A model generated the notes under the pieces. The model ran no database searches. It was not told where the DNA came from and saw nothing but the letters and a program-made list of their open reading frames with translations. From a virus (lineage: Duplodnaviria > Caudoviricetes), in IMG/VR virus record IMGVR_UViG_3300048881_000698, positions 96,001-160,000 of that record: 64,000 nt of DNA; one strand, 5' to 3'. The first letter of the stretch is position 1, and every line of letters begins with the position of its first letter. The position numbers and the translations under genes are program-made. Of this stretch, positions 7,104-54,042 are shown piece after piece.

Positions 7104-9080
7104 TCAAATATCGAGCTTTAATTTAAATGTCAGGTCTCGATCTTCAGTCTTTTTTACAGGTGTGGCCAATTTTGCAATTGCAATTAAATTTTTATTTTCG
7201 TCGTATACACCAATTTTAGAAATGTAAGTTTGTTTTCTAAAACTTGCAGTATGGTTTGCATAAGAGCTGCTAACTATATTTTTGATGACCATCTTGTCAT
7301 ATTCTACATAAGATTGCGAAACATTAAAAACTGGCCAGTTTGACCCAGAAAATTTGCTATTGTCAACATACCCTGGACTTCCGCCAGTAAAAGCCTCGAC
7401 GCCATGGGCGCCCGCGGGCGTGGTGTTGTTAACTATCAACCTATCGCCACTCACCAGCGTGCCAGCAATTGCCTTATTTCCGACGGTGCCGGCAGTTTTC
7501 ATTTTTAAAGTTATAACGATGGGAGACTCGGCGTCATTGTTTTCAACGTCAGATACATACATGTCGATGTTGCCGGCATCGGCTGCTAAATCTAGAGCAA
7601 TTTTTAGGGCCTCGGCGAAATCGACAGCATTGCTAGCTTGCGTACCAGCAACGATGGTTGAACTGGTATTCTCGAATTCGGTGACTGTAATTGTATGTGT
7701 CGTACCATCAGAATTGGTTAATATTAATGTTAAATCTTCCAGGCTGGCACCACCGCCGTCGGTGGTCATCAGCGTAGCAGTAGCATGTGCTAGCGGCTTT
7801 GTTGCGTTTGATTCAATATAAGTGGGGTTATTAGAGTGATTAAGCTCTGCTATTGGAGCATGAGCTAACATGGTAACAACAGGAACACGATTCACTCCTT
7901 CAAACGCAAGAGAGAAACTTGATGACGGCAAATGAAAGGTATCAAGCGATCCTGTCGCAAATTTGCCATATCCACTGTGATCTTTCCCACCAGCGTCTGA
8001 ATTGGCGTGGCGCAGAGGAGCTGATCTTTCAATTCCTGTGCCAAAATAAACCCATCTAGGATTATCAGCTGATGGCGTGGTCGGCGATAATGGAACCTTT
8101 GTTTTATAAAACTCTGTGTGCGGTGACCTAGGATAAGCAGGTTCGTTAGTGCCGGGCAGGCTAGGTATTTTTGGGTCAGTCGTGTTTGTATCTGTTCTGT
8201 TTGTTAAGTCCCAACTTCCGGTTAACAAGATAAATCCTTCTTTATAAAGAACTGTGCCGGCAACACTGCCAGTCTGAGATCCGGTTACCTCGATCAGCTC
8301 TCCATTTTTATATTTGTCCATGCACTGTCCGATAAGCGTGCCAGATACATAAAATCTAAGATCTACACTGCCCTTTCTAATAGATGAACCATAAAAAATA
8401 GAAGGAATACTAATAAGGTTAAGTTCTGCTATGTTAAGGTCCCGTTCCGGATCTGACATTTTATAGGTATGTCCAGGGCGGTCGCGGTCACGCTGACTGC
8501 CGGTAAATGTATAATGCTTGCTCAAAGGTATATACTCATTTAAAACATTTCTAAGAGCGTCAATATGTGAATATTTAACAGGTACATTTTCAAGACCTGC
8601 ATACTCTTTTTGATGATCTGAAAATCTATCCTGACCTTCACTATAATATTCTCTTTGAATACTAGCTGACATCGGATAAGAAAAACTAGCTGTTAAAATA
8701 TCACCATATTGTAATGCATTAAACGTATCAGTAGTCACTGTTTTGAAAGTGTGGAGGCCGCCCGCTTTAGTTATAAATGGGTGAATAATAGTTTTTTTGT
8801 AGCCGGCGTCTTCATTCGCGGCGATGGATTGCGCATAGTCCCAAGTATGTGAAGGTCTATCCCTATCAACGTTCATTTCATATAAGCTTATGTAACCACT
8901 AGGAACGCTTGGTACATCTGAGTTTTGATTGTCTTCGGCCCAAATATTTCCTTTGGAGCCGCGTCGCGTTGGCATGTTATTATAAAAAATGCTAGCGCTA
9001 TAAATAAAAAAAACAGATTTAGGATTAGTCTCTATTTGGTTGTAAAAAATATCATCTTTGGAAAATCGATAATATGGCAT
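7104..9080 (-). CDS. Virion structural protein with a tail-collar/DUF3751-like C-terminus; carries an inserted ATAT...FTGG module
   Basis: C-terminus YISKIGVYDENKNLIAIAKLATPVKK...KLDI; paralogous to 9107..10267. Confidence 0.65.
   Translation of the reverse strand: MPYYRFSKDDIFYNQIETNPKSVFFIYSASIFYNNMPTRRGSKGNIWAEDNQNSDVPSVPSGYISLYEMNVDRDRPSHTWDYAQSIAANEDAGYKKTIIHPFITKAGGLHTFKTVTTDTFNALQYGDILTASFSYPMSASIQREYYSEGQDRFSDHQKEYAGLENVPVKYSHIDALRNVLNEYIPLSKHYTFTGSQRDRDRPGHTYKMSDPERDLNIAELNLISIPSIFYGSSIRKGSVDLRFYVSGTLIGQCMDKYKNGELIEVTGSQTGSVAGTVLYKEGFILLTGSWDLTNRTDTNTTDPKIPSLPGTNEPAYPRSPHTEFYKTKVPLSPTTPSADNPRWVYFGTGIERSAPLRHANSDAGGKDHSGYGKFATGSLDTFHLPSSSFSLAFEGVNRVPVVTMLAHAPIAELNHSNNPTYIESNATKPLAHATATLMTTDGGGASLEDLTLILTNSDGTTHTITVTEFENTSSTIVAGTQASNAVDFAEALKIALDLAADAGNIDMYVSDVENNDAESPIVITLKMKTAGTVGNKAIAGTLVSGDRLIVNNTTPAGAHGVEAFTGGSPGYVDNSKFSGSNWPVFNVSQSYVEYDKMVIKNIVSSSYANHTASFRKQTYISKIGVYDENKNLIAIAKLATPVKKTEDRDLTFKLKLDI
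7380..7784 (-). repeat. Inserted domain module type D (single copy), ATATLMTT...EAFTGG
   Basis: GC-richer in-frame segment absent from paralog 9107..10267; shares termini and the ITL..TAG..GN..I motif with the repeated modules A-C. Confidence 0.65.
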
Positions 9081-9106
9081 TCTTGCATTTCCTACTAATC
9101 CTTATC

Positions 9107-10267
9107 CTAAAAATCTAATCTTACTGTGATAGATAAATCATTATCTGGTGTTTTTTTCAGAGGTTCAGACAGTTTAGAGACCGCTAATAGTTCACCAGCA
9201 GCAGAATATAAACCAACTGTTGTTAAGTAAGATACTGGATTGTCAGCTGTTGAAGTCTTTACTCTAATCGTGCTGCCAGTTAAATATGTCGGATTTGAAC
9301 TATAATTGTATTCATTAGAATTTGCTCGACAAAAATATTTTGTAGAATGTAATTCCACTGTATTGTTAAAATCTATACTCTTAAGTCTATGTCTGAGTTG
9401 ATTAGCCATAGTTTTAATAGTCGAACCGGTCATGAGGGCTCTAATTGAAGTAGAATTTGTTCCGTCCGCATCTCCAACTCCTAATGAGCCAGAAAGAAGA
9501 TTATGTTTATTCTCAGACGGAGATTGCGTAACGCCTCCGGAAGGATACATTAGACAACTAGCAGTAATAACCGCAATGCCTGCCTGATAAAATAATAGGC
9601 CGGCCGCGTTCTTATTACTAGACCCAGATAGGACAGCATATTCACCAGCTGGAGAATCTGTATAATATAAATCTGTTTGCCCTGAAGCAGGAGCTTGTCT
9701 CTTAATCGTTTCGACATCATTAAATCTATCATGATTAAGAAATTTAACCATAGAAGCCGAAGGGGAACCAAGACCAAGCTTCAAAGTAAAAGAGCCTTTT
9801 TTGATTTCGTCTTTCATTAACAAGCGAGAAAAATTAATGAAAAACGCTTCACGAATGGTCTGTCCGGACGGGAGTTTAAACTCTTTAATCGAGCCTGTCT
9901 CATCGTGTCCCATCAATATTTGTGCCATTTCATTATAAATATTAATTTTTTTTGCCTGCTGTACTGGCGTAGGATTTACCAATGACCCCACTCCTGTTAA
10001 AGAATCCGAAGCTGAAAAAGGGGAATTTGCTGAATATCCAAATGTGATATCAAAAAGATGATTCGCAGAAGAGCTTAAGTATGGATAATCATAAATCGAT
10101 TGGAACATGCCATGTGAATAATCTCGAATATTTGTTTGCAAACTTGCATGTGCTGCGTTTGTATATGTACCAGAAACAACAGAGCCTGTAATTGGTATTG
10201 CTTCGTGAAGCAACGTCCTTGTGGTTCTTTTGTCATTGGGTTCGAATATCTTAAGTTGTGTTGCCAT
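9107..10267 (-). CDS. Virion structural protein, paralog of 7104..9080
   Basis: Shared motifs KGS(F/V)xL, G..(F/L)Y..G, SxNPTY and GLY...ELLAVSKLSEPLKK...RLDF. Confidence 0.65.
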   Translation of the reverse strand: MATQLKIFEPNDKRTTRTLLHEAIPITGSVVSGTYTNAAHASLQTNIRDYSHGMFQSIYDYPYLSSSANHLFDITFGYSANSPFSASDSLTGVGSLVNPTPVQQAKKINIYNEMAQILMGHDETGSIKEFKLPSGQTIREAFFINFSRLLMKDEIKKGSFTLKLGLGSPSASMVKFLNHDRFNDVETIKRQAPASGQTDLYYTDSPAGEYAVLSGSSNKNAAGLLFYQAGIAVITASCLMYPSGGVTQSPSENKHNLLSGSLGVGDADGTNSTSIRALMTGSTIKTMANQLRHRLKSIDFNNTVELHSTKYFCRANSNEYNYSSNPTYLTGSTIRVKTSTADNPVSYLTTVGLYSAAGELLAVSKLSEPLKKTPDNDLSITVRLDF

Positions 10268-10282
10268 GTTTTTTACCTTATT

Positions 10283-11284: not shown

Positions 11285-11304
11285 TATCAACCTCCATTTA
11301 ATTA

Positions 11305-11351
11305 TAACTAGTTTTTATTTATTTTTTAACATCCTTGCCGGTATAAATAGT
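11305..11351 (-). promoter_or_regulatory. Two copies of a candidate late-promoter motif (ACTATTTA at 11344-11351, ACTAGTTA at 11305-11312)
   Basis: Intergenic; the same motif recurs upstream of other genes. Confidence 0.5.
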
Positions 11352-11377
11352 TCATTTCATTATAAAATTCATTTTTA

Positions 11378-14300
11378 TTATTTATGCTGTGTGTTGTTAA
11401 AATTAATATTAAAATCAATTTTCTTTCCCGTTTGTTTTGATATTAATCTAACTTTAAAAATTTTCCGATCATCGAAGATCGATTCTTCAGCAAGGCTCAA
11501 ACTATAGTTGCCGGCTTTATTTCCAGACCCGGGAGCTTTGTTGATCATTGTTTGTTCTAAAGTTGGAATGACACTAAAGTATCTTCTCACGCTTTTCATA
11601 TTTGTTCTTGCAGGCATTTCAGGTCTATACACTTCTACCAATAAATAAACGGCGCCGCCATCGTCCACCAACTGGATTTCATACATGGAGGACGGGTTGG
11701 AAATGTTTTCATGTATATCCTTTGCTCTAAATGTGTAATAATATTTTTTATTTGGCCTTACATTTTCTAAAAAAGTAGTAGAGGGCGCGCCATTCGTAAG
11801 CACTTTCTTATAAACAGAATTATTTTTAAAACTATCATATGATACTGGTGGGTAGTATTGAAACGTTTGGTTAACAAGTATCTCTGATTCGGTTTCAGGC
11901 GGATTAATTCTAAAAATCTCATAGTACGCAGGCGGATCGTCTGCTTCGTAAGTAAGTATCGGAGGTACTGTATCAACCCCTTGAGCAATCAATTGTTTCT
12001 CAATGGCTTGTTCATCTTCCGGTAGTAGTGCTATTGGTGTTGCCTCAACTTTTCCAGTTCCGGCATCGAAACTAAACAAAAATCTGTCATTGATCCCCAT
12101 ATAAGGTGTAAGGCGCACAATAGGAGGCAGAGGTGGCGAGTCAACCATGACAGTATTAATTTCGCCATAAGGCACTTCAATTATTTTAACAGACGGGCGA
12201 GATATAACATTAAACTCCAAATGTGCCTCAGAATTGGCTGTCGGCCCCCATCCTGTAACTTCTTGTCTAACCCCAGATAAGACTGTTACCTTTTGCCCCG
12301 GGGTGGAAGGGCCAAAATAATGATATCTGTCTCCGGCCATGGCGTTGGAGAAGGGGCTGGGTATGATGTTGCTTTCTTGAATAGCATTGGTATAAGTCTG
12401 CAAAAAACGAATAAAATCGTTGGTAACTGACCAAGAGTCATGGCTCAGGAATGGAAATTCAACTTCGCTTACATCGAGGCCACCCGACTCAAAAAACGGT
12501 TTGGCCCATGGGAATGGATCCCAAGCGCTGGTAAAACCTTCCCAGAGGGGGTAGCCAAGGTGGGGATCTACAAACTTTTGATGATCGGGCCAATGAATAA
12601 GTACACTAGGTTGGACACTATAGCCCGCGGGCATGTTCCATTTGCCATCAGGGTGATATGTGGTATTAATGTGATTTGGGTCCAGAACCGTGTCTTTATA
12701 CCTTGCATACTCTTCCGGCGTTATATAAACGTGTAAGTTGGTTTTCACTTCTCTCTCGATAGGTTGATATTCATAGTCTGAGCCAAAAACAGCAGTTATT
12801 GCATGGAGTTTGTATGTTATTTTCCTGCCGTACCCGACTTGTGTATCGACAAGTTTAATCTCATTTATATCTGGCTTGTTAATATAGTAAAAGCTTTGTA
12901 GCGGCGCAGTGGATTGCGAATCCCATTTAGAAACTCTCCAAAAAAGTACTTCAGTGCATGCCATTTTGCCTGATAAAATCTCCGGGTAAGATCTGGTTTT
13001 TTTCTCAACTAATTGTGCGAACTTTTTCTTAATAGTTTCCATGGAAGCTTGTAGGGCTTGCACAGTGGCAGCAGGGGGGACTGTGTTATTAAGATCTTCA
13101 TATTCAATCGATGTAGCCGCAAATAAATTAGGATCCTCACTATTTGAAACTATGAGTGCAGATGGAACACTATTATTATCTTTTAAATACCAGTATCCTT
13201 TAGTTTTGTCGGAGATGGCATAAGAGTACCCAATCGAGTCCGGATCTAATTTTTCCATGAAAGTGTAAAAATCGTATTCCTTAAGATTTTTTTTGCCAAG
13301 ACCTGCTTTTACGCTGGCGATGGTGCCGGTTGGGCCACTCTTAGTTGGGATTACGGATGTGGGAACCATGTAAGAATCTTCCCCATCCATAAATAATTTT
13401 AAAAATGCGTACCATAAGGGCATGGCGCCGACTTTCCACGAGTCTCCCCAGAGCGGTGGCGCCTCGAGTAAGAGTTGGAGCAGGCTATTCACATCTCCAC
13501 CGTAACCTTCAAGTGGTTCGACCCAGGATGGGGGCGGAATGGGTGTAAAATTTAGATGCATTTGCATGGGAAAAAATTCTTTCTGGCGTTGATATAACCA
13601 TGCCCAAAACTCACCTTTTTTTGGGAAAAGAATTTGATTTTTATACATGCCCAGCTTATTCTGGAAGATGGAAAATGTACCCTTGTTCTTAAGTCTTTTC
13701 ACTGCATTTGTCCAAGCGGTAAAGTAATTTTCAGTGTCTTGCTCGCCGATCTTAGTTCCCGCCTTAAGGCCCGGGGCTTTGGCGGCGTCTTCCGCGGATA
13801 GTAGTATATCTTCAAATGCTTTTATTTCATCATATAAGGTTATAAAATTGCGACGTTGATCCTTCAATTCATCAGTTTGCACTTTCCAGGATTTCATGTA
13901 TTCTGGAACAGCTTTCATGGAAAATTTTGGATCATTATCTTTGCCCATCATTTCATATGTTATTAATTCAAGGTGCGGGAAGAGATAGGAATGCTGCCAG
14001 GCAACGCTGATTTCATCTTCATATTCTTTATTATAGAAGTTATATTCAGGCTTTACATCATAAACCAAAGCATTTGTTTGGGGCGCATCAAGATATTCTT
14101 TATTGGAATATGGCATTGGGAATAAAAAGACATGATCTTCTTTGTATTTACTTATAGGATTTGTATTATCTCTTACAATTCTATTTTGAATTGTTTGTAG
14201 AACCTCAGCATTTTCGTCGGCTGTCCGGTTGGCATTAAAGACCGTTAAACGCACCCTATGCACAATATAAGGACGTGGATCCTCCGATTGGTATCCGGAG

Positions 14301-14887
14301 AAGAGGTTCAGGGCGACCAATTCGGAGCACGTAGACCCGACGGCACCGCCTTGGCAAAGTTGTACCGTTTTGTAGTGTAGATGTTGGGGCACGCCAAATA
14401 TTTCCTTTTGTGGAAGAAATAGTGCATCTGCAAGGTGGTTTCCCTCGTAGCCGCCCCACGTGCTCCAGTGGTCCGCCCACATGTTTGTCTGGCTGGACAT
14501 ATATCTAATGTAGTCAGAGCCCTGCGACGACTCGAGTGTATTGACCCAATATTGACCTAATATATATCTAATAGGATCCATGAAAACGCTGTAGGTGGAA
14601 GGAAATGGAGGATTTCCAGGATTCTCAGATTTCCATGTAGGTGTATCATATTTTAAAGATTCTCCCCAGGACTTTAAATGTTCCCATCCTTCAGAATTAT
14701 TAGGAATAAATAAACCGCCGCCGCCGAGAGCATATGCCCAGTTGTTTGCAACCATAATATTGCCGTTGCCAACATTATTATAGGTGCACGCCGGCGACGG
14801 GTGAGTGTGATCATGAGGAATCCAATCTTCGATAATCGGAATATTATTTGCCCACCATATAATTATTGGGTCATGTTGACCTGCCAT
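11378..14887 (-). CDS. Large putative virion protein with a C-terminal FN3-like domain
   Basis: 1169 aa in the structural module; YYEIFR...PNKKYYYTFRAKDIHENISNPS is an FN3-like signature. Confidence 0.6.
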   Translation of the reverse strand: MAGQHDPIIIWWANNIPIIEDWIPHDHTHPSPACTYNNVGNGNIMVANNWAYALGGGGLFIPNNSEGWEHLKSWGESLKYDTPTWKSENPGNPPFPSTYSVFMDPIRYILGQYWVNTLESSQGSDYIRYMSSQTNMWADHWSTWGGYEGNHLADALFLPQKEIFGVPQHLHYKTVQLCQGGAVGSTCSELVALNLFSGYQSEDPRPYIVHRVRLTVFNANRTADENAEVLQTIQNRIVRDNTNPISKYKEDHVFLFPMPYSNKEYLDAPQTNALVYDVKPEYNFYNKEYEDEISVAWQHSYLFPHLELITYEMMGKDNDPKFSMKAVPEYMKSWKVQTDELKDQRRNFITLYDEIKAFEDILLSAEDAAKAPGLKAGTKIGEQDTENYFTAWTNAVKRLKNKGTFSIFQNKLGMYKNQILFPKKGEFWAWLYQRQKEFFPMQMHLNFTPIPPPSWVEPLEGYGGDVNSLLQLLLEAPPLWGDSWKVGAMPLWYAFLKLFMDGEDSYMVPTSVIPTKSGPTGTIASVKAGLGKKNLKEYDFYTFMEKLDPDSIGYSYAISDKTKGYWYLKDNNSVPSALIVSNSEDPNLFAATSIEYEDLNNTVPPAATVQALQASMETIKKKFAQLVEKKTRSYPEILSGKMACTEVLFWRVSKWDSQSTAPLQSFYYINKPDINEIKLVDTQVGYGRKITYKLHAITAVFGSDYEYQPIEREVKTNLHVYITPEEYARYKDTVLDPNHINTTYHPDGKWNMPAGYSVQPSVLIHWPDHQKFVDPHLGYPLWEGFTSAWDPFPWAKPFFESGGLDVSEVEFPFLSHDSWSVTNDFIRFLQTYTNAIQESNIIPSPFSNAMAGDRYHYFGPSTPGQKVTVLSGVRQEVTGWGPTANSEAHLEFNVISRPSVKIIEVPYGEINTVMVDSPPLPPIVRLTPYMGINDRFLFSFDAGTGKVEATPIALLPEDEQAIEKQLIAQGVDTVPPILTYEADDPPAYYEIFRINPPETESEILVNQTFQYYPPVSYDSFKNNSVYKKVLTNGAPSTTFLENVRPNKKYYYTFRAKDIHENISNPSSMYEIQLVDDGGAVYLLVEVYRPEMPARTNMKSVRRYFSVIPTLEQTMINKAPGSGNKAGNYSLSLAEESIFDDRKIFKVRLISKQTGKKIDFNINFNNTQHK

Positions 14888-25200: not shown

Positions 25201-28200
25201 TAATAACCGTGACGGTAGTGCCCGTTCCGCTGGCATCAGAAGGAACATTGACTGTAAATGCGTCCGCGTAGCCGGCGCTGCTTACGTCGAGGACATCTAT
25301 TGCTGTGGCTTTTTCGCCATCTGCCCTAGAAGTCACAGGTGTGTTTCCAAATGGAGTTGTTGCTCCGCGCCACTCACGGACACTAGATGCTACAGTCCCG
25401 CTACTGTTAAGCTGAAAATGGTAGCGCCATGGCAAAGCATTGTAAGCGCTATATTCTTCTGCTGCAGGGTCTAGATATCCCCTAGTCATTGTGGTAAAAT
25501 CTCCAGGTGAAGAAAACCGGTTAACAATCAAAAATTCATCTTTTGGCCGTACTGGAAGAGAAAAATCAATATTGATTCCATCAGTTTGTGTTCCTTCCAA
25601 CCGCAAAGATGGGTTCTCAGAAGCTGACTGTGCTGTAGTGTAATTTTCTCGAAGCCATTTATTATTATAAGTTCTGCCTGACGTTTGAAGGAAATCATAG
25701 TTGTGCTGATAGTTTCCTATTTGATTACCAGTAGTTGTTGCCCCTTCTATAGAACCGGTTGAAAGCCTAACATATTTGGTACTTACTGGCCTTTTTGTGT
25801 CCTCGCTTATAAACACTCTAGGCAAGGCCATATCTATAGTTCCGTTTAAATTTGAATCTGGTGGATATATTTTCACATCTTTGTGGACCACGCCGCCTGC
25901 AAAATTTACTACGGTCATGCCAGGTCCTGCTTCGGAGCCGCCCAGAGTAATATCCGTATTACCGGCTGGGCCGGCAGTTTTCTGCGTTATGGTTACAGTG
26001 GCGGAGCTGTCGTTGGTCGCAGTGAGGTCATCGTGGAGATTGAGAACGGTGGCTATGTGTCCGGCTTGAGTGATGTTATTAGCTGATCCGCCACTCGCAG
26101 TATCGCCAGCAGAGAAAGTTCCGAGCAATGATTCACCAGTGGTATCAGACATGGCGTTGGTGTCTGCGTGAGCGGTGATTGTCACTGTATCTCCAGCAGT
26201 TGTGACAACCGATATGGTATCCTCGGCGCCGGGGTCAGCGAGTACTTGACCAGCGTCTGTAATCGTTATTGTTGCAGTGGCGGATACAAACGGCCTTAAG
26301 TCACTGGCTTGTGTGTCAGCCTCAAACCTAAACTTTTCAGGTCTATCTCTAATGGTATCGAATTCGCCTGTAGATTTTGGTTGTATGTTCAAATCAACTT
26401 TTCTATGGATGGAACCGCCTGACCACTTTTGCGTTGTGTGGCCCTGTAAAGATGTGTTAAGGACTGTAGGTCCAAAATCTTTATGTAAATTACCAAAGTT
26501 GATGTCTGAGTCTCCTGTACCATGCTGATATATACTAACGATAGTGGGGAGGGTACCCTTCGCGCTTCCATAATCAGATGATTTATCGGCGTTGTTTTCT
26601 ATTTCAAACAAAAGTCTAGTCTTGTGTCCCGATCTGAGAATATTGTAGGATGGATCAAACTGGGGGCGGGCACGATCATATGGCCTGTCCTCTTCGGCAA
26701 GATGAGAAGTGCCGGCTTTAATAGTTATGTATTTTTGTATACTAGGGGGATTTATTGTACCATCTGGTCTAAGGCTTTGGGGAAATTCTCTTATCGTATG
26801 TTCTGCCGAATTATCCCCTGATCTTAATGAGGTCGCAACTCTTGCTCTAAATCTATATTGACTTTGTCCTCTTGGAGTGGGAAACTGAGAGTTTAAACGT
26901 CTTATTCCTGTATTTGTGTGAACCGGTTTTGTTGAATTAAATATTCTTCGTCTAGACTCATCAACTGCAGCGTCTCCAGAAGACTGTTCTTCTATCTCGT
27001 CTGCACCCAACGTTCTCCACCACGCGCGACTATTCGCTTGTGTTTTGGAGCTTCCCTGCATTGCTGGCGCAAATTTATTCTTTTCATCTTCTTCACGGGG
27101 CGCTGAATTTCCTCGTTCACCTTTCGCGGCAGCTTCGGCCCAAGCCGAATTGCCCTCAATGCGGCCTTCAGGTTGGGCAGACGCCAAAAGACCCATATTC
27201 CTATCTTCAATCGTGGGATATTTATTAGCATATTTATTTCTTTCTAAAATATGACTCTCGACGACTGTCCTTAACTTATTTGAAAAAGCTGCTGATGCAG
27301 GAAAAAGCTGTTCAAGTATATCATTAACAGCCTCGTCAATCCATTTATAATATTCAATATATTTGTCTAAATCTGGAGTATTCCTAACTTTTTGGAAAAA
27401 CATATGTCTTATTTTCGCCATCCTCTTGTAAGAAAGACGATATCGATTTTGCGGCTCTCCGATCAAGTTATTGAAATCTTTAATTGTTGCAAAGAAATTC
27501 AACATTTCTTCAGAAACGGTGCGATACATACTTTTTTCTGCAGCAAAGTAAAAACTTTCTGGCCTTGTATCACTTTCAAAATGAATATCATCGCTACTAA
27601 GCACTTTAATCATGTCAGAGCTGTTAAGGTGCTCGGGTAAAAGTTGTCTTGCAGTACTTATGTATTCTATGTCCGCAACATCTGTGTTTGATATTGGAAA
27701 GTCATAGCCCAAGCCAGTGTGGCGATACCCAGTAATAGCTCCAATCGGACCAAAATCGTTTTGTTTTCTTACAGCACTTCCATCGGAAGTAGTAAAATGT
27801 ATAGACCCGGAAGAGAAGTCGGAGACCTTAAATTCACCACTTGAATCTGAGCCCGTCACTTGATTAAAGTCCCAATGAAGAGCAAGAGTGTCCATTTGTG
27901 GTATGAATCCAAGTGAACTTGTAAGAACTAAACCGCCTGCTGAATCGGCCGGGAAATCCTCAGCTACATACGCAGCTTCAAAAAGATGAGCACTTTCATA
28001 TGGGTGCTCTGTTCCAAAATTTAACACGTCTCTCGCATGTGCATCGATAACATTGTTTGGAAGATAATCCATCCACACTCTTGCTGAGCCTACTTTGATG
28101 TCAGAAGTTTGCAACACTGTTCCGGAAAAGTCAGTCCTATGAGCCCCAACAAAAATTCTTTTTGATTTGTTAAGAAAGGCATCGCCAGCAACTTTTGTCA

Positions 28201-31200
28201 AAGAAGCTGTTAACAAAAAACTATTTTGTTTTATATCGGCTGCCGTATTGACGCCATAAAACTCAACATTGTAAGACGGCTGAACCGCGGGAGCTGTTGG
28301 AGAAGTTTCTAAGTAACTTCCGCTGATTCCTGGCGACCATGGATAATTTTCAGGCCTAATCTTTATCGCAAAATCCCATTTTTCGTTGTCATAGACATTA
28401 TAAAACAAAGAACTAGATAATTCTGGCATAAAGCCGCCGGCAGAACCGGTTAAAATAAACTTAACGTTGGTAGAGTCTTCTTTATCTCTAGCTGCGAAAA
28501 TCTGAAAATTTGCTAGATTGTCTTTTGACCACCCAAGATTTTGCGCGGGATAAGTACCGCCAAAGCTTGTCGCTGTAATTCCTCCGTTGATTGTTAATGC
28601 GTCGGCATCGCCGGCCTCAACGGCGGGGATTGTTGTATTTGCCGCGGGAGAGCCAGCAGCGACGCTCATTTGTGAGACTGTTATCGTATCGTTTGTGTTG
28701 GTGACAGTGCTGATTGTTGTAGTTAGTTTACCTGCGTGCCCATTAGCAGACTCAATAGCCTCTTTGAATTGTGCTGTATATGCGCTAATTGTACTGTAAC
28801 CTGCCAATTGAATGTGAGTATAGCCATAACCAGTGCCACCTGTGCTTTGTGGCCCAGCTCTATAAATTGCATACTCGACAGACGTGCCATCAGCTGATAC
28901 AAGCGTAAATCGCATTGAACCATCGTTCCCATAATCAGTTATTGTGTCCGACAGCAGTTTCATTGATGCAGTTGAATCTTGTATCGCTCTTTTTGCCGAA
29001 TGCACGCCTCCAATTGAAGATGATAAGCCTGGATAAGGATAGGCAAATTTAGAAAATGTACTTTTTGTTTTTGGGAACAAAGTCCCATATTCAAAAGTTA
29101 TTCCTACTCCTCGCTCTTTAAATGGTGTGACCACATCAACTGCGGTATCATCAGTGCCGCCAGACTCTTCATATGAACCAGCTGACCCAGATATATAAGA
29201 TATTGAATTTGTTATATCTTCATCCTGAAACTGAAATACGCATGCACTATTTCTAGACGGATGATTAAAATCTATGTATTTCTTCTTTGTATCTGTATAT
29301 CTTACCTTTTCTTCAAATTTATAACTAACGTTGTTGCCATAAATATTCAAGTTGATTAGTTCGTCATCTACACCAAAACACCTAACAAGATTTCGAAAAG
29401 ATTTTTCAGTACCCTTTGTTTTGGCAATATATGATAAATTATTATAAATGTTTTGATAAATTAGATTCTTGACTTTGTGTAAAGAATTTTCAAATAGGAC
29501 TTTTTCACCTCGATCCAAAAATTCCTCAAACACACTTGAGTTGACAAATAGATCAGGAGTTACAATACCAACATTTTCTAACAATCGGTTGCTAAAGGGT
29601 ATCGGTTCATGGCTGCCACTAGTATAAATTGGTTCTTTAATGTTTGGCAACTCTTTTATCTGTACTGCTAATGTGTCAAAATAGCTTGCCATAATTTGAG
29701 TTAATTTAACAAGCTCTGAGCCATTTTTATCATCTTCAGAAGTTATCCATTCCGGGAGACTTCTATAAATCGCACCATTATTTGTATAATCATGTTCTCG
29801 TCCGACGCCAGTTTTTTCTTCTAAGAGTGCTTTAACTTTGGGATGAGATGGATATATAATTGGATCTTTAAATTCCGTTACAGAAGCACTTGATTCTACG
29901 ATAGCAGAGCCAGTATTTCTGGAATTTGAAGTATACCCTTTCCAATAACCATTCGAGAGCCTTCCGGAATAATCTAAAACTCTTTCATCGGCAGAGGTTT
30001 TTCCAGTAATGCCTTCATTAAATTTAAAATAAACTCCTAAATCAGTATTTGCATCATCAACATTTGCGCCGCCGCCGACTTGACTACGATAAAATCTACC
30101 AATTTCTTCTGCATTTCTTCTCGCTTTCCAATATCTGAACTCGTCAATTGAACCTGAAAGTTTTCCATAACCAGCAGGTTCGGCGCCGGTGATCGTTCTG
30201 AACGCACCGAGCATACCCAGCATAGATCCAGAATTTGAACATTGCGCAGGAATAACCTCATTTATGATCCCAGTGCCGCCAGTAAATCTTGTCTCCCCAA
30301 CGTCCTCATTTATTGTTAACGCATCTTCATCGGCTCCTGTAATGGCAGGGATTGCTGTGTTTCCGTCCCGGCCTTTTGTAACTTGTGTAATCGTAATCGT
30401 ATCGTTTGTGTTGGTGACAGTACTGATTGTTGCAGTTAGTTTGCCTGCGTGCCCATTAGCAGACTCAATAGCCTCTTTGAATTGTGCTGTATATGCGCTA
30501 ATTGTACTGTAACCTGCCAATTGAATGTGAGTATAGCCATAACCAGTGCCGCCGGTGCTTTGTGGTCCAGCTCTATAAATTGCATACTCGACAGACGTAC
30601 CATCAGCTGATACAAGTGTGAACCGCATAGAGCCGTCGGTTCCGTAAGCGACGCTTTCATCGTTCTTAAGCGTCATTGTTGCTGTAGCTGCATCGTTAAT
30701 TGATTGTTTCTCTCTGAATGACCCATCAAAATATAGCTCTGTTTCCATCGCGGTTCCACTGTTCTTCAATGTTAAAGCATAATGATGCCACTTATTATCA
30801 ATCATCTCTGAATTTGTAAGAGATGTGTAGAGGGCGGAGCCTGTCACAGAACCTGATTGGTAAAATAAGAAAAGCGGGGTTGCTGTGTCAGAGGTATCTG
30901 CCGTCAAAAGGTCCACGACTAATCTACCGTAATGTTTATCGGCGGATGGGCTGCCGTTCCACAGGTCGAATATGCACTCTTCTGCGGTTTCATTTTCGTC
31001 ATCTGCTAAAGCTTCTTTTTTCATCCAAAATTCAACTGTTAAGCCATGACTAGCACTATATTGTAAATTAGATTGTCTATGTTTAGTCTTATCATAAACA
31101 TTTGCTCCATAAGAGCCGGAATATCTGTGCTTGATATCAGGAAATATTTTTTTAATATCTTTGTTATTAGGATCCTTATGTGGGCCGCCTTCGAAAGAAA

Positions 31201-31645
31201 TATATTCAATGTCGGCTGCAATGGGCAGACCAATATATCCTGCGCCCGCATCTATGCCAGCCCCATCTTTGGTTCCCCAACCTCCGGGTGAAAAAACAGC
31301 ATATCCATTTGTTCGTGGATACTCCTTCTCAAAAAGATATAAATCTAAGTAAGAGGAGCTATTTTCCCATGCTACTTTTTCATAAAGTGAGCCATCATAA
31401 GGATAAGTTTTCCAAATTCTTGTAATGGATTGCTCATAATATTCTTCAGCAGAACCAAATCTTGCAAAATTTTCCGGCTTAGTAAAGTCTATTTTTGGAA
31501 AAACTCTATCTTTCTTTTTTATACGTTCTTCAAGGTAGCGCTTAGATTCTGCCTGTTTACCAACTTCATCCGTACTTGAAATAGGCAAAACTTTTTTGGC
31601 TTTTGTGTCTTGAAAAAGTTCTTTAATTTTGTGATTTTTGCCCAT
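19229..31645 (-). CDS. Giant (4138 aa) virion/baseplate-associated protein with LamG/concanavalin-A-like domains and six inserted modules
   Basis: LamG motifs LTVEFWMK, DNKWHHYALT, LYFDG and GSIDEFRYW; AKTKGTEKSFRNLVRCFG resembles baseplate wedge/tail proteins; located next to baseplate genes. Confidence 0.75.
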   Translation of the reverse strand: MGKNHKIKELFQDTKAKKVLPISSTDEVGKQAESKRYLEERIKKKDRVFPKIDFTKPENFARFGSAEEYYEQSITRIWKTYPYDGSLYEKVAWENSSSYLDLYLFEKEYPRTNGYAVFSPGGWGTKDGAGIDAGAGYIGLPIAADIEYISFEGGPHKDPNNKDIKKIFPDIKHRYSGSYGANVYDKTKHRQSNLQYSASHGLTVEFWMKKEALADDENETAEECIFDLWNGSPSADKHYGRLVVDLLTADTSDTATPLFLFYQSGSVTGSALYTSLTNSEMIDNKWHHYALTLKNSGTAMETELYFDGSFREKQSINDAATATMTLKNDESVAYGTDGSMRFTLVSADGTSVEYAIYRAGPQSTGGTGYGYTHIQLAGYSTISAYTAQFKEAIESANGHAGKLTATISTVTNTNDTITITQVTKGRDGNTAIPAITGADEDALTINEDVGETRFTGGTGIINEVIPAQCSNSGSMLGMLGAFRTITGAEPAGYGKLSGSIDEFRYWKARRNAEEIGRFYRSQVGGGANVDDANTDLGVYFKFNEGITGKTSADERVLDYSGRLSNGYWKGYTSNSRNTGSAIVESSASVTEFKDPIIYPSHPKVKALLEEKTGVGREHDYTNNGAIYRSLPEWITSEDDKNGSELVKLTQIMASYFDTLAVQIKELPNIKEPIYTSGSHEPIPFSNRLLENVGIVTPDLFVNSSVFEEFLDRGEKVLFENSLHKVKNLIYQNIYNNLSYIAKTKGTEKSFRNLVRCFGVDDELINLNIYGNNVSYKFEEKVRYTDTKKKYIDFNHPSRNSACVFQFQDEDITNSISYISGSAGSYEESGGTDDTAVDVVTPFKERGVGITFEYGTLFPKTKSTFSKFAYPYPGLSSSIGGVHSAKRAIQDSTASMKLLSDTITDYGNDGSMRFTLVSADGTSVEYAIYRAGPQSTGGTGYGYTHIQLAGYSTISAYTAQFKEAIESANGHAGKLTTTISTVTNTNDTITVSQMSVAAGSPAANTTIPAVEAGDADALTINGGITATSFGGTYPAQNLGWSKDNLANFQIFAARDKEDSTNVKFILTGSAGGFMPELSSSLFYNVYDNEKWDFAIKIRPENYPWSPGISGSYLETSPTAPAVQPSYNVEFYGVNTAADIKQNSFLLTASLTKVAGDAFLNKSKRIFVGAHRTDFSGTVLQTSDIKVGSARVWMDYLPNNVIDAHARDVLNFGTEHPYESAHLFEAAYVAEDFPADSAGGLVLTSSLGFIPQMDTLALHWDFNQVTGSDSSGEFKVSDFSSGSIHFTTSDGSAVRKQNDFGPIGAITGYRHTGLGYDFPISNTDVADIEYISTARQLLPEHLNSSDMIKVLSSDDIHFESDTRPESFYFAAEKSMYRTVSEEMLNFFATIKDFNNLIGEPQNRYRLSYKRMAKIRHMFFQKVRNTPDLDKYIEYYKWIDEAVNDILEQLFPASAAFSNKLRTVVESHILERNKYANKYPTIEDRNMGLLASAQPEGRIEGNSAWAEAAAKGERGNSAPREEDEKNKFAPAMQGSSKTQANSRAWWRTLGADEIEEQSSGDAAVDESRRRIFNSTKPVHTNTGIRRLNSQFPTPRGQSQYRFRARVATSLRSGDNSAEHTIREFPQSLRPDGTINPPSIQKYITIKAGTSHLAEEDRPYDRARPQFDPSYNILRSGHKTRLLFEIENNADKSSDYGSAKGTLPTIVSIYQHGTGDSDINFGNLHKDFGPTVLNTSLQGHTTQKWSGGSIHRKVDLNIQPKSTGEFDTIRDRPEKFRFEADTQASDLRPFVSATATITITDAGQVLADPGAEDTISVVTTAGDTVTITAHADTNAMSDTTGESLLGTFSAGDTASGGSANNITQAGHIATVLNLHDDLTATNDSSATVTITQKTAGPAGNTDITLGGSEAGPGMTVVNFAGGVVHKDVKIYPPDSNLNGTIDMALPRVFISEDTKRPVSTKYVRLSTGSIEGATTTGNQIGNYQHNYDFLQTSGRTYNNKWLRENYTTAQSASENPSLRLEGTQTDGINIDFSLPVRPKDEFLIVNRFSSPGDFTTMTRGYLDPAAEEYSAYNALPWRYHFQLNSSGTVASSVREWRGATTPFGNTPVTSRADGEKATAIDVLDVSSAGYADAFTVNVPSDASGTGTTVTVIMKNTTSGTPDANEIWYHGAGSSTEPRDRLILAINGTDDSSVAKYGNGADTLTDANVVGVGIKGLTAAVGTATNPITLIASTATADGNDIEVIQTVGSNIVDTDQLTDNKLTGGKEKLKINDYRMNIPVHVVQHVTTSNHVGEDFAGLNVLLARHSGKFGISPLHSPSATATITITDAGQILADPDAEDTISIVTTAGDTVTITAHADTNDMSDTTGESLLGTFSAGDTASGGSANNITQAGHIATVLNLHDDLTATNDSSATVTITQNTGGTAGNTDITLGGSEAGPGMTVVSFTGGGKGAREHDYQTKAAYHKVHRNRLKRLELTSTNDGASYTVVTASTYDNAYVRHSIPRNDLQYAWITASAFLRRDPLGVQSTRLGYDGKVKASLNLGSVATPYVEALTFISRSEVCSFVSADSDLRYWSQPWYQTGEREGSVGGSTFVQRIPVDFAGMNLNIYEPITSSFGADGRNYDTASINTLGFPSMEVSWYDPNFSDVNYLNSVAKSTVDSPSHGWAIYPVYSNTTADSGGEGTILNALILHRQGPYGYPSWKQVRAGDHPVARYNRSKNIIQYIEYEEIKYTQADKDADNRNKSYYVNSFWSNPEKDKNRLNKAMFKTAIKSYISPPITNRYLPMVHTVAGVDENGQVNTMVLKHSYGNLLSYTPYEKLNENLQIVKPGKNKVVYDKLTKSIKNKETGLIKLTYREKIYPKEKFTYLAKTRQRGDYTEVSSSQREKGIWTNKKIGFQRTFWKDAPTARRGGSQQSVTNSLGFIQDMRSSPAPGGTWPHAGEGTPDHDSTFAYMLPSLSIWPLDGGSSPRLNGKEKFNEATYLAGELMALHAPSIYASIEGFRLGTTATPMVAAATASQQYCYPGGLSSQYYTLSTRLVWYRPWDAALHDFYRTDELSGIKPWYNSYEDYAQEIRCMAKDHTIIPEFRISENMSYYIDNGFVVNNKFLTLEGAYPELSASADSEKSDYKDDFFKVYSHSDFMKYYGKISDDHENLTGLTKITLKCHGIKKLLPYQGFYPVLRSVQLGSMFSSSFAPYISGSHAALLSTADTPHGTTGTSHGGQIAAMMQPFFAPGILYNTVKSGVAVDWPMVTSSHLGTQPAAAGYPGYNASYLSGTAADGKLFNWRMPFEALVEPHRHLPLSQSDGAKTMFYAWNRSGSIPRGPWWDYHGINDHKYALAMQNFLGEIPRFFLKDESFKTFASAPQSKFKAMESGSIYYMDVVLKQTHDFVMSEGPRRIQMLQADNKPILWDIRGCLYGPPCQVTPDSTSNSRARFFPDGNNDGTSAKYDASANFSDPAFAPFTPPHFYQDAIARITFSPHSASIMSPGEVRTFSLDEIVASAMVETTFTGSGHSTDDLENKPGIPVVGLYPSAIDVLDVSSAAYADAFTVNVPMKAGGTGTTVTVIMKNTTSGTPDTNEIWYHGAGSGTEPRDRLILAINGTDDSSVAKYGAGVTSGEDWGILGITALTGTSPKISISAWYTNEHGNEIEFIQTVGSNIVDTDQLSSGKLFGGNSNANNGRLCGSGRYISKLLDAAQRDLYPAGRYRMRLSSSMNLFGKTRLKTIEYETDSNGGGESFKPTKATDTGDPAFDVWTISPKFECPTLNFSGSSAKSLVEQRADQGLLTTDQWVNGITASIGTRAMWGGYGEIPSVNSGLWLSLRESFPDKLDEAAITDSVNAGGIVPGTATRSLLKVCGFKPEKERIGELADKKLISEAIVAVPFVIKNSKRHFFTIDKVLFDIAMGTKKQELGKDMLLPGKSIKEMVAKLKNYYLPPHMDFMRQNSTINPFVIYVFEFTHELDKEDLSHIWQNLMPKIARSAIEQEVVVGHNLDSNEFFGGFKIPKDIQWMVFKIKKRAEMSYYNVTADSEDDSRFAFEFKLGGSKKKPDYNYNWPYDFFSLVELADIKAEFEFDPAKSLSLKSKPIALTGDGELFNMPQQPTLPTSDSLPGQTPLINLPEFGASPFGPGVPGSNGGGYPQ
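20633..21058 (-). repeat. Inserted module type C, copy 2 (SAIDVLDVSSA...KLFGG)
   Basis: Long near-identical DNA tracts shared with 24863..25309. Confidence 0.92.
24311..24703 (-). repeat. Inserted module type B, copy 2 (SATATITITDAGQ...SFTGG)
   Basis: 393 bp with about 25 mismatches against 25892..26284 by manual alignment. Confidence 0.95.
24863..25309 (-). repeat. Inserted module type C, copy 1 (ATAIDVLDVSSA...KLTGG)
   Basis: Repeat of 20633..21058 with a divergent internal segment. Confidence 0.92.
25892..26284 (-). repeat. Inserted module type B, copy 1 (SATATITITDAGQ...NFAGG)
   Basis: 393-bp direct repeat of 24311..24703. Confidence 0.95.
28556..28975 (-). repeat. Inserted module type A, copy 2 (...YGNDGSMRFTLVS...SFGG)
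   Basis: Repeat of 30275..30688 and 32809..33222. Confidence 0.95.
30275..30688 (-). repeat. Inserted module type A, copy 1 (ATATMTLK...RFTGG), inside the LamG domain
   Basis: 107-bp perfect match between 30444-30550 and 28731-28837. Confidence 0.95.
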
Positions 31646-31647
31646 TT

Positions 31648-33651
31648 TTACTCAACTCGAAATTTAAATTCTTCAATTTGTTCTGACCAATCGTTGTTAA
31701 CGTAATACGCTAATTTAATTTTATATGCATATCCCTCCTCTAACAGCCCCATATCAAGATCAAAATAACTTCCGGAAACATCATAAGAAAATTGAGTATA
31801 TAACTCATTAGTAGAACTTCCGGTCCCATATGCTACTACATCAAGGTTGTCTATAGCTCTGATCACTTTAAAAGACCCACTTTCGATAGTTACGTTTTGC
31901 GTGGCACTAGATGCTTTGGTGTAAATGTTTGGATTCCAATTTTTCTCCCGCACAAACAATCTAAAAAGTGGTGTTTCAGTTCTAGAATACGTTGACTTTA
32001 AATTTCTTATAGTTGTTGCATACTCAGGACTAGGATTGGTATTCGAAGTAACTACATCCTTTAAATATATTGAACCAGTATGGTATTGAACATATCCAGT
32101 TTGAGTACGTTCTGCAGTGTTGCTCCACACATCATATGCCTCAGTTAGTGAAGATCTAGACCCAGTTAAAGCAAAAGAGGCAGAATAAATTCCAGTAGAA
32201 ACATGGCCGCCTGTAACATATGTTGGGTACCCGACCTGGGAATCGATAGAAGCCGTAACTCCCCCTCCTTGAGGCAGTCTTATTGAAGAAGTGGAAGGTG
32301 AATTATTTCCCACATTGCCAGAATATATCATGACATAAATTGCGCCCGTGCCGACATCAGGGATATTTTGAAGTTTTCCTCTAACATAATTATAAAAATA
32401 AATTGTATTCAGATTATCTACCTGAGGCGCTAGCGAACTACTGTAATAAAAATTATTTCTGTCATCTTTTTTCGCAGAATTCCAACGAGCCTCAATCATC
32501 GGCCGCTTATAAAAAAATTCTGATGTTCTAGAAAAGAACTTTTTTGTATAGTTGGATGATTTAGAGCCAGTGGTATTTTGATATGTAAATGAGTCATCGT
32601 CCGATCTTTCTACCCATGCTTCTAGAGAACTTGTTAAAGCAATAGCAAATCCATTATTTGCATACGTCCCAGCTAACCAATCTTCTACTTGTCTAGTCAC
32701 ATCAACTTCTAAATCTTCAGGCCCTGCATTAAAAGTTACAACCTCCGATAAGCCATATAGATCTTGCTGATTTCTTGCAACTGCTCCGGGAACGGCCCAC
32801 AAGCCATCGCCGCCTGTAAAACTTGTCGCTGTAACTCCTCCGTTGATTGTTAATGCGTCGGCATCGCCGGCCTCAACGGCGGGGATTGTTGTATTTCCAC
32901 CTGTGCCTTTCGAAACTTGCGTGATTGTTATCGTATCGTTTGTGTTGGTGACAGTGCTGATTGTTGTGGTTAGTTTGCCTGCATGCCCATTAGCAGATTC
33001 GATGGCTTCTTTGAATTGTGCCGAATATGCACTAATTGTACTGTAGCCTGCCAATTGAATGTGAGTGTAACCATAACCGGTACCACCTGTACTTTGTGGC
33101 CCAGCTCTGTAAATTGCGTATTCAACAGATGTGCCATCAGTTGATACAAGCGTAAATCGCATTGAACCATCGTTCCCATAATCAGTTATTGTATCTGTTT
33201 TAAGTGTCATTGTTGCCGTAGCTGTATCAAAGTTGCTTGTAGCGTTAACCCAATTTGCACCGGCTATATTATCTTTTGTTTCGTCTCGATAATTTTCCAT
33301 ATCAAGGCCAATCCCCTCCTCCCAATCTGCATCCAAGGGGGTCGCAACCAATTTATAATCACGTGGAACAGTGAAAGCATGTTTACAATTGAACAGGCGC
33401 AGATAAAAACTGACACTTCCACTGGCGGGGATCGTTTCAGCTGTCCGATCAACGGCTATATCCGCTGTTGGGAACTTGACTAAAATTCTTGATAATTCTG
33501 CTGAAGATGATGCAGCTTGACCGTATATAGAAAATACTTCTAATACATCAGAAGCGCCCATATTTGAGCCCGTACCTCTTGTGGTCAAATTTGACTTATA
33601 TGCATTAGTAATGGTTGTGTCAGCATTGGCTATATATCTTTTAATCCCCAC
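31648..33651 (-). CDS. Virion protein with a DNRLRE/CBM96-like N-terminal domain; carries module A copy 3
   Basis: Pattern ADTTI...SNMGASDVLEV...SRILVKF...YLRLF...WEEG...VDVTRQVEDWL...NNGF...FFSR. Confidence 0.6.
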   Translation of the reverse strand: MGIKRYIANADTTITNAYKSNLTTRGTGSNMGASDVLEVFSIYGQAASSSAELSRILVKFPTADIAVDRTAETIPASGSVSFYLRLFNCKHAFTVPRDYKLVATPLDADWEEGIGLDMENYRDETKDNIAGANWVNATSNFDTATATMTLKTDTITDYGNDGSMRFTLVSTDGTSVEYAIYRAGPQSTGGTGYGYTHIQLAGYSTISAYSAQFKEAIESANGHAGKLTTTISTVTNTNDTITITQVSKGTGGNTTIPAVEAGDADALTINGGVTATSFTGGDGLWAVPGAVARNQQDLYGLSEVVTFNAGPEDLEVDVTRQVEDWLAGTYANNGFAIALTSSLEAWVERSDDDSFTYQNTTGSKSSNYTKKFFSRTSEFFYKRPMIEARWNSAKKDDRNNFYYSSSLAPQVDNLNTIYFYNYVRGKLQNIPDVGTGAIYVMIYSGNVGNNSPSTSSIRLPQGGGVTASIDSQVGYPTYVTGGHVSTGIYSASFALTGSRSSLTEAYDVWSNTAERTQTGYVQYHTGSIYLKDVVTSNTNPSPEYATTIRNLKSTYSRTETPLFRLFVREKNWNPNIYTKASSATQNVTIESGSFKVIRAIDNLDVVAYGTGSSTNELYTQFSYDVSGSYFDLDMGLLEEGYAYKIKLAYYVNNDWSEQIEEFKFRVE
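32809..33222 (-). repeat. Inserted module type A, copy 3 (ATATMTLK...SFTGG), in a different gene from copies 1 and 2
   Basis: Near-identical flanking tracts shared with copy 2. Confidence 0.95.
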
Positions 33652-50381: not shown

Positions 50382-51054
50382 TATCTACCTCCGCCAATCT
50401 ATTATCGTATCTCTCTACTTCTTTTTTGTTATTGGTTCTATTATTTTCATGCATTCGATATTTGTATAAAGGCATCAACAAATTGTACAAATTATATTTT
50501 TCTTTATATCTTGTCAAAAGCTCGTGACCTTCGCGCATTTTAAATTCTTCGTTATAAAAACCTATGCTACACAAAGATTCATATGTAAACATTGTACCAC
50601 AAGCAATAGGTTCTTCTGAAGATAGATGTCTGCTTAGAATGTTTCCAGCATTGTCAACTTTAAAATAATCACAAGCAGTAGCTTGGTAACTTTGACCGTC
50701 GCCCATTACCCTAGGGCCAGAGTTCATATCAAGAAAAGTGGAAAGTATATATAAGAAATGTTTCGACACATAATCATCTGAATCTACCCTGACAAAGTAT
50801 TTTCCTAAAGAATTCTTAAGGACCATGTTTAACGATCCTGGTAGTCCGATATTCTCCGTATTATTTATTAATTTTATATTCAAATATTCTTCTAGTGGTT
50901 TGCAAACTTCTTCTAATTGTTCTTCCGGATCATCATTTACAATAATAACTTCAAATTCATCCTTTGAAATTGTTTGCTTAGACAAACTTCTAAGGCAGCG
51001 ATAAAGCCATTTTTTTTGTTTGTAACAACATATACCAACTGTTATCTTATACAT
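50374..51054 (-). CDS. Glycosyltransferase family 2
   Basis: FEVIIVNDD, NIGL and RVDSDD. Confidence 0.9.
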   Translation of the reverse strand: MYKITVGICCYKQKKWLYRCLRSLSKQTISKDEFEVIIVNDDPEEQLEEVCKPLEEYLNIKLINNTENIGLPGSLNMVLKNSLGKYFVRVDSDDYVSKHFLYILSTFLDMNSGPRVMGDGQSYQATACDYFKVDNAGNILSRHLSSEEPIACGTMFTYESLCSIGFYNEEFKMREGHELLTRYKEKYNLYNLLMPLYKYRMHENNRTNNKKEVERYDNRLAEVDNG

Positions 51055-54030: not shown

Positions 54031-54042
54031 TCCTAAATTTTA

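Follow-up and report, generated by a model that had tools for sequence, protein, structure and literature searches.

The window analysed here is a stretch of 64,000 nucleotides, bases 96,001–160,000 of the 185,278-bp genome (40.5% G+C, 100% complete by CheckV) of an uncultured marine T4-like phage. Four of the proteins that it encodes, of 386, 658, 667 and 4138 amino acids (aa), are crowded with a short motif, [ST]-[GA]-S. None of the four has a Pfam or PHROG match. All are encoded downstream of the gene for a gp6-like baseplate wedge, which PHROGs recognise inside the window. In T4-like phages the peripheral baseplate and fibre proteins are encoded downstream of the wedge gene, and in Flavobacterium phage immuto several proteins of the matching module past its wedge gene are annotated as tail fibre or tail spike. 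Directly upstream of the window PHROGs identify a gp23-type major head protein, a tail sheath, a neck/adaptor-like protein, a portal, a terminase and a tape-measure-like protein. The original prediction for this DNA held that the motif marks O-linked modification sites, used by a cluster of glycosyltransferase (GT) genes at 48.7–64 kb to coat exposed virion proteins. The argument turns on the following features, given in window positions unless stated, with (−) for the minus strand and the basis of each in brackets.

7104..9080 (−): 658-aa distal baseplate/fibre-like protein, 10 sites (motif count, orthologs in 78 relatives)
9107..10267 (−): 386-aa baseplate-associated protein, 9 sites, highest motif density (motif count, homolog family)
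11378..18261 (−): 1169-aa and 1124-aa virion-module proteins, zero motifs (motif count, relatives survey)
19229..31645 (−): 4138-aa giant virion protein, 32 sites (motif count)
31648..33651 (−): 667-aa protein directly downstream of the gp6-like wedge, 10 sites (motif count)
33652..35439 (−): 595-aa gp6-like baseplate wedge, internal comparator (PHROGs, motif count)
35880..44207 (−): 2775-aa protein, motif not in excess (motif count)
48683..63805 (−): variable sugar cassette (profile matches)
Genome 160,555–163,895 (window-equivalent 64,555–67,895, past the window end): tandem pair of glycosyltransferase genes, GT-A and GT-B (profile matches)

How large is the excess? Expected counts were taken from 2000 composition-preserving shuffles per protein. 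The motif occurs 9 times in the 386-aa protein (1.4 expected, z-score 6.6), 10 times in the 658-aa protein (1.8 expected, z 6.3), 10 times in the 667-aa protein (2.4 expected, z 5.1) and 32 times in the 4138-aa protein (11.5 expected, z 6.1); for each of these, none of the 2000 shuffles attained the observed count. Pooled, the four proteins hold 61 motifs where 17–18 are expected (z ~11). The other large proteins of the module stay at or below expectation: 1 motif in the wedge (1.0 expected), none in the 1169-aa (1.2 expected) or 1124-aa protein (2.0 expected) and 2 in the 2775-aa protein (3.5 expected). The manual counts behind the original prediction (about 9, 10, 10 and 30, with about 1 in the wedge) agree with these exact figures, as does its rough expectation of 1–2 for the 386-aa protein, and the excess survives composition correction.

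Could such counts arise from patches rich in Ser, Thr, Gly and Ala, from internal duplications or from a recurring DNA word? The proteins are indeed rich in these residues, and they contain repeated cassettes. Yet the pooled z-score is the same when residues are shuffled only within windows of 30 or 15 aa, so rich patches do not account for the excess. In the motif-rich proteins neither permuted order, [GA][ST]S or [GA]S[ST], is in excess, and when exact tripeptides are scanned without bias TGS ranks second and SGS third. Together the global and local shuffles and the permuted orders rule out composition or local patches. All six serine codons are in use at the motifs and no 9-mer common to them exceeds two copies. 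This codon diversity rules out a DNA-level word, and the earlier claim that selection acts on the protein holds. Segments shared between proteins, as detected by BLAST, hold almost no motif sites, ruling out recent domain duplication. The excess also recurs in the 80 relatives examined and in three lineages outside the clade, and we regard a statistical or compositional artefact as extremely improbable. Separately, T-x-T tripeptides are strongly overrepresented in the four proteins (TIT 18 against 2.8 expected, TAT 16 against 4.0, TVT 11 against 2.6), which suggests either that threonines line beta-sheet faces or that the repeated cassettes inflate the counts.

Which proteins carry the motif? 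Among the 56 proteins of at least 300 aa encoded by the genome, the enriched ones are the four described above, the major head protein (6 motifs, 0.9 expected), the sheath (8 motifs, 2.8 expected), the neck/adaptor-like protein (4 motifs, 0.9 expected) and a 432-aa protein. In the outer particle proteins the excess is three to six times chance. No excess is seen in the tape measure (0 motifs, 2.4 expected), the portal, the terminase, the wedge or any enzyme. Capsid sites fall at residues 163–251, nearly all of them within a lineage-specific insertion (residues 120–330), and the C-terminal half of the same protein (365–589) aligns with HK97-type capsid proteins including T4 gp23. In the sheath the sites span residues 198–804, with seven of eight outside the conserved C-terminal domain. 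By analogy with T4, the capsid and sheath insertions that bear the motif would face outwards. That the enriched proteins have unrelated folds fits a short motif read by a trans-acting factor. The 432-aa protein (genome 94,324–95,622, directly upstream of the window) shows a mild excess, 5 motifs against 2.0, and its N-terminus reads Y-Y-V-T-P-T-G-S-N-S-N-D-G-T, a signature typical of right-handed beta-helix proteins.

The excess is a property of the whole group. Orthologs were tallied in 80 related viral contigs: those of the 658-aa protein (78 relatives) hold 547 motifs against 92 expected, those of the 386-aa protein (80 relatives) 446 against 105 and those of a 346-aa protein 85 against 22. 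The 386-aa family has more than 8000 detectable homologs. Those scored hold 6.5 motifs on average where 1.4 are expected. Thousands of homologs occur in marine and freshwater metagenomes. Outside the group, most proteins downstream of the wedge are enriched in immuto, where a 1053-aa 'tail spike' carries 53 motifs against 12 expected. In T4 none of 20 virion proteins is enriched, the fibres included (13 motifs, 21 expected), which rules out a generic feature of T4-type virion folds. Wedge homologs are flat in immuto, in Microcystis phage Mel-JY01 and in T4 alike.

The composition of the motif is informative. At position 1 only the hydroxylated residues are enriched (S 3.5-fold, T 3.8-fold; D 1.2-fold, N 0.7-fold), at position 2 only G (4.8-fold) and A (2.4-fold), and at position 3 S (3.6-fold) more than T (1.8-fold), with D and N not significant. 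The preceding residue is preferably L, V, I, F, Y or M and the following one I, F, V or A, giving the consensus [LIVFYM]-[ST]-[GA]-S-[IFVA]. Of the 61 motifs in the four proteins, 34 follow a hydrophobic residue; when one is required, the 386-aa protein has 7 motifs against 0.4 expected. Asx and Ser/Thr can usually replace one another in turn capping. Asx does not substitute here, and the apparent need for a hydroxyl therefore hints at chemistry beyond geometry alone. Neither N-x-[ST], the target of cytoplasmic N-glycosylation of the HMW1C type (z −0.5 to 0.7 in the four motif-rich proteins), nor D-[ST]-[AILVMT], the sequon of general O-glycosylation in Bacteroidota (z −1.8 to 2.1 in the motif-rich proteins), is enriched, which excludes these other sequons. 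The sites in this phage are isolated, about 20 to several hundred residues apart. Of the original claim about exposed virion proteins, the confinement of a specific, hydroxyl-requiring signal to outward-facing virion proteins holds up, with the orientation itself taken from T4.

If the motif is read by an enzyme, which gene encodes it? The sugar cassette at the end of the window was the first proposal. Its enzymes include UDP-glucose dehydrogenase, an epimerase, a GT2 glycosyltransferase, 2-hydroxyacid dehydrogenase, CMP-sugar cytidylyltransferase, NeuB and transaldolase, together with an NTP-transferase/HAD fusion, five methyltransferases and two short GT1/GT4 proteins; no polytopic membrane protein was found in it. 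A nonulosonic-acid pair is present, NeuB at 129.8 bits (cut-off 22.1) and CTP_transf_3 at 72.8 bits (cut-off 22.6). At only 228 aa, the product of the NeuB-family open reading frame (window 52613–53299) falls short of the usual length of sialic or pseudaminic acid synthases, and two stretches of it match the profile; its activity is uncertain. The cassette varies, NeuB occurring in only 4 of 12 near-complete relatives, and the excess is constant over 80 relatives. A link to NeuB in particular is excluded on these grounds, and the assignment of the motif to the 48.7–64 kb cluster is not supported in the form proposed.

The tandem pair past the window end is a better candidate. GT-A is a GT4 enzyme of 422 aa (PF00534, Glycos_transf_1, 45.5 bits, cut-off 26.4). 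GT-B, of 691 aa, is GT4-like, with a Glycos_transf_1 score of 21.1 bits that falls below the 26.4 cut-off; its C-terminal half is a second module resembling small viral GT1-type proteins, which in relatives is fused, encoded as a separate neighbouring open reading frame or fused to a GT2 domain (~540–560 aa). Scanned against Pfam and NCBIfam, the GTs matched only GT4/GT2-type families. The GT genes lie ~55 kb from the structural genes. They are adjacent in 11 of the 12 relatives and in all six of those at least 90% complete. The sole relative without an adjacent pair is a contig estimated to be 81% complete, in which, if the ~55-kb spacing of our genome applies, the pair would fall beyond the contig end. 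Immuto keeps this gene order: a PD-(D/E)XK nuclease gene is followed by GT-A, GT-B and a sugar cassette of other content, which includes amino-sugar aminotransferases and a PglB-like acetyltransferase; the conserved pair heads a variable sugar cassette in both phages. On the same genome as our window, a trypsin-like peptidase gene on the opposite strand adjoins a ClpP-family protease gene (genome 167,897–169,557), with a PIN-PhoH2-type helicase gene close by.

Among 50,697 deposited phage records, homologs of GT-B occur only in immuto and Mel-JY01, and these are the two deposited phages with a strong motif excess. A strong excess was found only where the tandem pair is present, as the following comparison shows.

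This clade (80 relatives): GT-A yes, GT-B yes; strong excess
Immuto: GT-A yes, GT-B yes; strong excess
Microcystis phage Mel-JY01: GT-A yes, GT-B yes; strong excess
Further lineage (31 contigs scored): GT-A yes, GT-B yes; 3–5-fold, or 4–10-fold with a hydrophobic residue at −1
RM378: GT-A yes, GT-B no; no excess
phiPsal1: more distant GT1 relative (24% identity), GT-B no; no excess
S-CBS4: more distant GT1 relative (27% identity), GT-B no; one fibre protein only, ~2-fold
LR756508 (484 kb): GT-A yes, GT-B no; weak excess
T4: GT-A no, GT-B no; no excess
S-RIM8: GT-A no, GT-B no; one fibre protein only

In the further lineage GT-A and GT-B lie side by side in the sole complete genome (G013). LR756508 lacks GT-B on a scan of the whole record, and its capsid protein is 51% identical to that of our phage, as close as the capsids of immuto and Mel-JY01. 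A weak excess or none had been predicted for it beforehand; its proteins past the wedge show ~2-fold (6 motifs against 2.6 with a hydrophobic residue at −1). GT-A alone is ruled out as the predictor, since RM378, phiPsal1 and LR756508 have it with little or no excess. The proposed co-occurrence with GT genes is thus found for the phage's pair at 160,555–163,895 and is not supported for the cluster named at 48.7–64 kb.

A hydroxyl-specific motif found on unrelated outer proteins, absent from internal proteins and from T4, and tracking the GT pair, argues for a trans-acting enzyme. On these sequence features we judge the chances about even that [LIVFYM]-[ST]-[GA]-S-[IFVA] is an O-glycosylation acceptor motif on virion proteins. 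It is an inference that these transferases act on protein with the motif as their acceptor, and so is the function of any coat. In such a mechanism the motif would be placed at exposed beta-turns of the capsid insertion domain, the outer domains of the sheath, the neck, the distal baseplate and the fibre proteins. In the infected cytoplasm the soluble GT-B-fold pair, GT-A and GT-B, would act on virion proteins that are folded or still folding and link a first sugar to their Ser/Thr hydroxyls. Donors and extension of the glycan would then come from the adjacent lineage-variable cassette, here perhaps with a nonulosonic acid, a UDP-glucuronate-derived sugar and O-methylation, and the outcome would be a strain-variable sugar coat. 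The complete genome encodes no flippase, polymerase or initiating phosphoglycosyl transferase of the WbaP or WecA type (no Bac_transf or WecA-type match), and no thymidylate-synthase-type hydroxymethylase. These absences speak mildly against lipid-linked or hydroxymethyl-base acceptors, though host enzymes could supply such steps.

A different account dispenses with modification. The motif would be an unmodified, lineage-favoured tight beta-turn or beta-arc and fibre-repeat signature, small residues set between two inward-facing hydrophobics, and the sugar genes would serve DNA, the host envelope or metabolism. It is the main rival and a serious one, though we consider it rather unlikely; the conservation and predicted structure of the sites favour it and count against O-glycosylation. 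In an alignment of 57 sequences of the 386-aa family (~50–80% identity), sites 27, 235, 280 and 330 are conserved columns, and substitutions there stay within the degeneracy of the motif (T/S, G/A, S/T). The capsid family has four near-invariant sites, with others gained and lost between relatives inside the insertion, a pattern that also counts in favour of O-glycosylation. AlphaFold models are poor overall, with a mean confidence (predicted local distance difference test, pLDDT) of 60 for the 386-aa protein and 56 for the capsid. A fold search with the 386-aa model gave no credible fold match; the capsid model is confident only at residues 161–280 (pLDDT 70–89), and its fold search matched only the HK97-type C-terminal half. 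Within residues 161–280 the motifs lie where strands meet loops: strands end at T213 and at T232, with G-S starting the loop, and S203-G-S stands immediately before the strand 206–213. In this model, then, the motif is predicted to mark tight beta-turns. Conserved columns, conserved hydrophobic flanks and strand ends are just what a structural turn would show.

The fibre proteins point the same way. The excess in the single fibre proteins of cyanophage S-RIM8 and siphovirus S-CBS4 is modest, ~2-fold, and stems from internal repeats such as G-D-[LV]-S-G-S-A-S-F; both phages lack the GT pair. In immuto the fibre motifs form periodic arrays with periods of 6, 9 or 15 residues and with aromatics following. 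Because of these arrays and the repeats in pair-negative phages, a structural fibre repeat containing the tripeptide exists in its own right. It resembles the motif described here in the tripeptide itself, the aromatic or hydrophobic residue that follows and the periodic arrays. It differs in occurring in phages without the GT pair, where it reaches ~2-fold only through internal duplication, and it leaves unexplained the scattered conserved sites of capsid, sheath and baseplate. Single instances of the motif also match a LamG-like G-x-[IL]-D-E strand and the beta-helix N-terminal T-G-S-N-S-N-D-G-T, and the co-enriched T-x-T tripeptides are typical of beta-sheet faces.

Does the fold itself require the motif? 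The 386-aa homologs of pair-positive and pair-negative phages were compared by alignment. At site 330 (anchor Y-S-x-N-P-T) this clade, one immuto homolog and one Mel-JY01 homolog have T-G-S, whereas RM378 and LR756508 have D-P-T, N-E-N or T-N-S. At site 235 other lineages have N-G, a classic turn, which this clade has converted to T-A-S, and the fold therefore needs no motif there. Site 214 (hydrophobic-hydrophobic-S-G-S) behaves otherwise. It is kept everywhere regardless of GT-B, including RM378 and LR756508, both of which lack it; this site is probably intrinsic to the fold, and it too tells against an acceptor role. The motif thus occupies turns, yet the fold mostly does not need this tripeptide. 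Pair-negative phages using other residues at homologous turns are hard to reconcile with a purely structural signature, as are the lack of excess in the beta-rich fibres and baseplate proteins of T4, the failure of Asp and Asn to be enriched, the occurrence of the motif in unrelated folds of one phage and not in its internal proteins, and an excess that follows the GT pair.

Four further points weigh against O-glycosylation. The large 1169-, 1124- and 2775-aa proteins of the virion module lack the excess. In phiPsal1 a homolog of GT-A lies in the head module, yet the motif is not in excess. The co-occurrence rests on few lineages, and a tree of the wedge protein leaves GT-B-negative and GT-B-positive phages in an unresolved polytomy, with a dubious match for RM378; shared ancestry is possible and the contrasts may therefore not be phylogenetically independent. 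Finally, the nearest solved structure to GT-A is that of chlorovirus B736L (PDB 3OY2; full-length match, E 5e-11); PDB 4PQG (Gtf1; E 0.003) is a weak match. The fold of B736L also resembles that of T4 DNA glucosyltransferase, and a protein acceptor is not established for B736L; the likeness is a lead and no support for a protein acceptor.

The trans-acting factor need not be a glycosyltransferase. Hydroxyl specificity and distribution across folds would suit any trans-acting reader, such as one for Ser/Thr phosphorylation, acylation or cross-linking, or a phage assembly chaperone docking on turns of the form hydrophobic-[ST]-G-S-hydrophobic; chaperonins are indeed encoded by large phages of this group, for example the GroEL/GroES of immuto. 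But the genes identified as co-varying with the motif are glycosyltransferases only, and no kinase, acyltransferase or dedicated chaperone was found among them. We consider such a factor decidedly improbable. For O-glycosylation, what survives of the original prediction is a protein-level, hydroxyl-specific motif that co-occurs with phage GT genes, minus the cluster that it named; glycosylation stays a candidate, with the structural turn open beside it.

Several observations on the neighbouring proteins may be recorded here. The 658-aa (7104–9080) and 386-aa (9107–10267) proteins have ~40 C-terminal residues in common, at 39% identity, which recalls the common C-terminal fold of the T4 baseplate proteins gp10, gp11 and gp12. 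Domain cassettes are common to the 4138-aa and 667-aa proteins (72% over 180 aa and 56% over 250 aa), and a weaker cassette links the sheath (residues 493–618; gene at genome 75,207–78,665) with residues 2113–2235 of the 4138-aa protein. Orthologs of the 1169-aa and 1124-aa proteins occur in only 6–7 of the 80 relatives; motif counts in them and in the neighbouring enzymes are at or below expectation, and the two are probably recently exchanged host-range modules. Group-1 GT relatives of GT-A (24–27% identity) lie inside the head module of two unrelated siphoviruses, together with a GT2 enzyme and a SAM methyltransferase, a setting that counts in favour of O-glycosylation here; this trio is likely to serve capsid glycosylation, but without an excess of [ST]-[GA]-S:

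Locus L089, Pontimonas phage phiPsal1, 5764–9981: head-module GT trio
Locus L090, Synechococcus phage S-CBS4, 7300–12282: head-module GT trio

To our knowledge, protein glycosylation of phage particles is documented in few cases, and we know of no acceptor rule; a literature search turned up no description of such a motif in phages. The broader proposal is that a very abundant marine and freshwater T4-like group covers its capsid, sheath, neck and baseplate in a glycan that the phage makes itself and that varies between strains, attached at a short, defined O-glycosylation motif on beta-turns by a conserved two-gene transferase core. We hold it tentatively, its chances a little short of even. 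If true, it would supply the first sequon-like rule for bacteriophage particle glycosylation, and sequence would suffice to predict glycan sites in a very large group of environmental phages. It would also give the hypervariable sugar cassettes a clear purpose, a variable coat affecting adsorption, stability, grazing or host defence. Immuto and Mel-JY01 are cultured relatives that carry both motif and pair. If the motif is structural, it would still be a strong lineage-specific marker of outward-facing virion domains and an aid to annotating proteins without database matches.

How would such a system compare with those already described? The heptosyltransferases AAH and TibC, which act on AIDA-I and TibA, O-glycosylate many serines of beta-rich proteins in the cytoplasm, reportedly recognising a short strand-loop-strand element and no long sequon. 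They belong to another enzyme family (the phage GTs match GT4/GT2-type families only), transfer another sugar and have bacterial adhesins as acceptors. In GtfA/GtfB a GT4 enzyme works with a GT-B-like partner encoded next to it, on serines in S-A-S-like contexts of serine-rich repeat adhesins. The phage GTs resemble GtfA at the family level only; the acceptors of GtfA/GtfB are long disordered Ser-rich repeats exported by accessory Sec, unlike the isolated turns in folded proteins proposed here. Flagellin and pilin glycosylation islands have conserved transferases at the head of a hypervariable cassette, often one for nonulosonic acids, and their acceptors are Ser/Thr near hydrophobic residues on exposed parts of a polymerising protein, in flagellin without a strict sequon. 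A Maf-type transferase was not found in this phage.

Two viral systems complete the comparison. Chloroviruses build methylated capsid glycans with their own cytoplasmic enzymes (PMC9614988). They provide the closest solved relative of GT-A, but their glycans are N-linked and the candidate linkage here is O-linked. In mycobacteriophages, according to a summary (PMC12619734) of Freeman et al. 2023, phage-encoded GTs place glycans on the C-terminal tails of capsid and tail-tube subunits. Our motif sites are internal and do not lie on C-terminal extensions of that type; they are candidate turns spread over many proteins, with the GT genes ~55 kb from the structural genes. The two systems would have in common soluble GTs encoded by the phage, virion proteins as cytoplasmic acceptors and a proposed role in shielding the particle.

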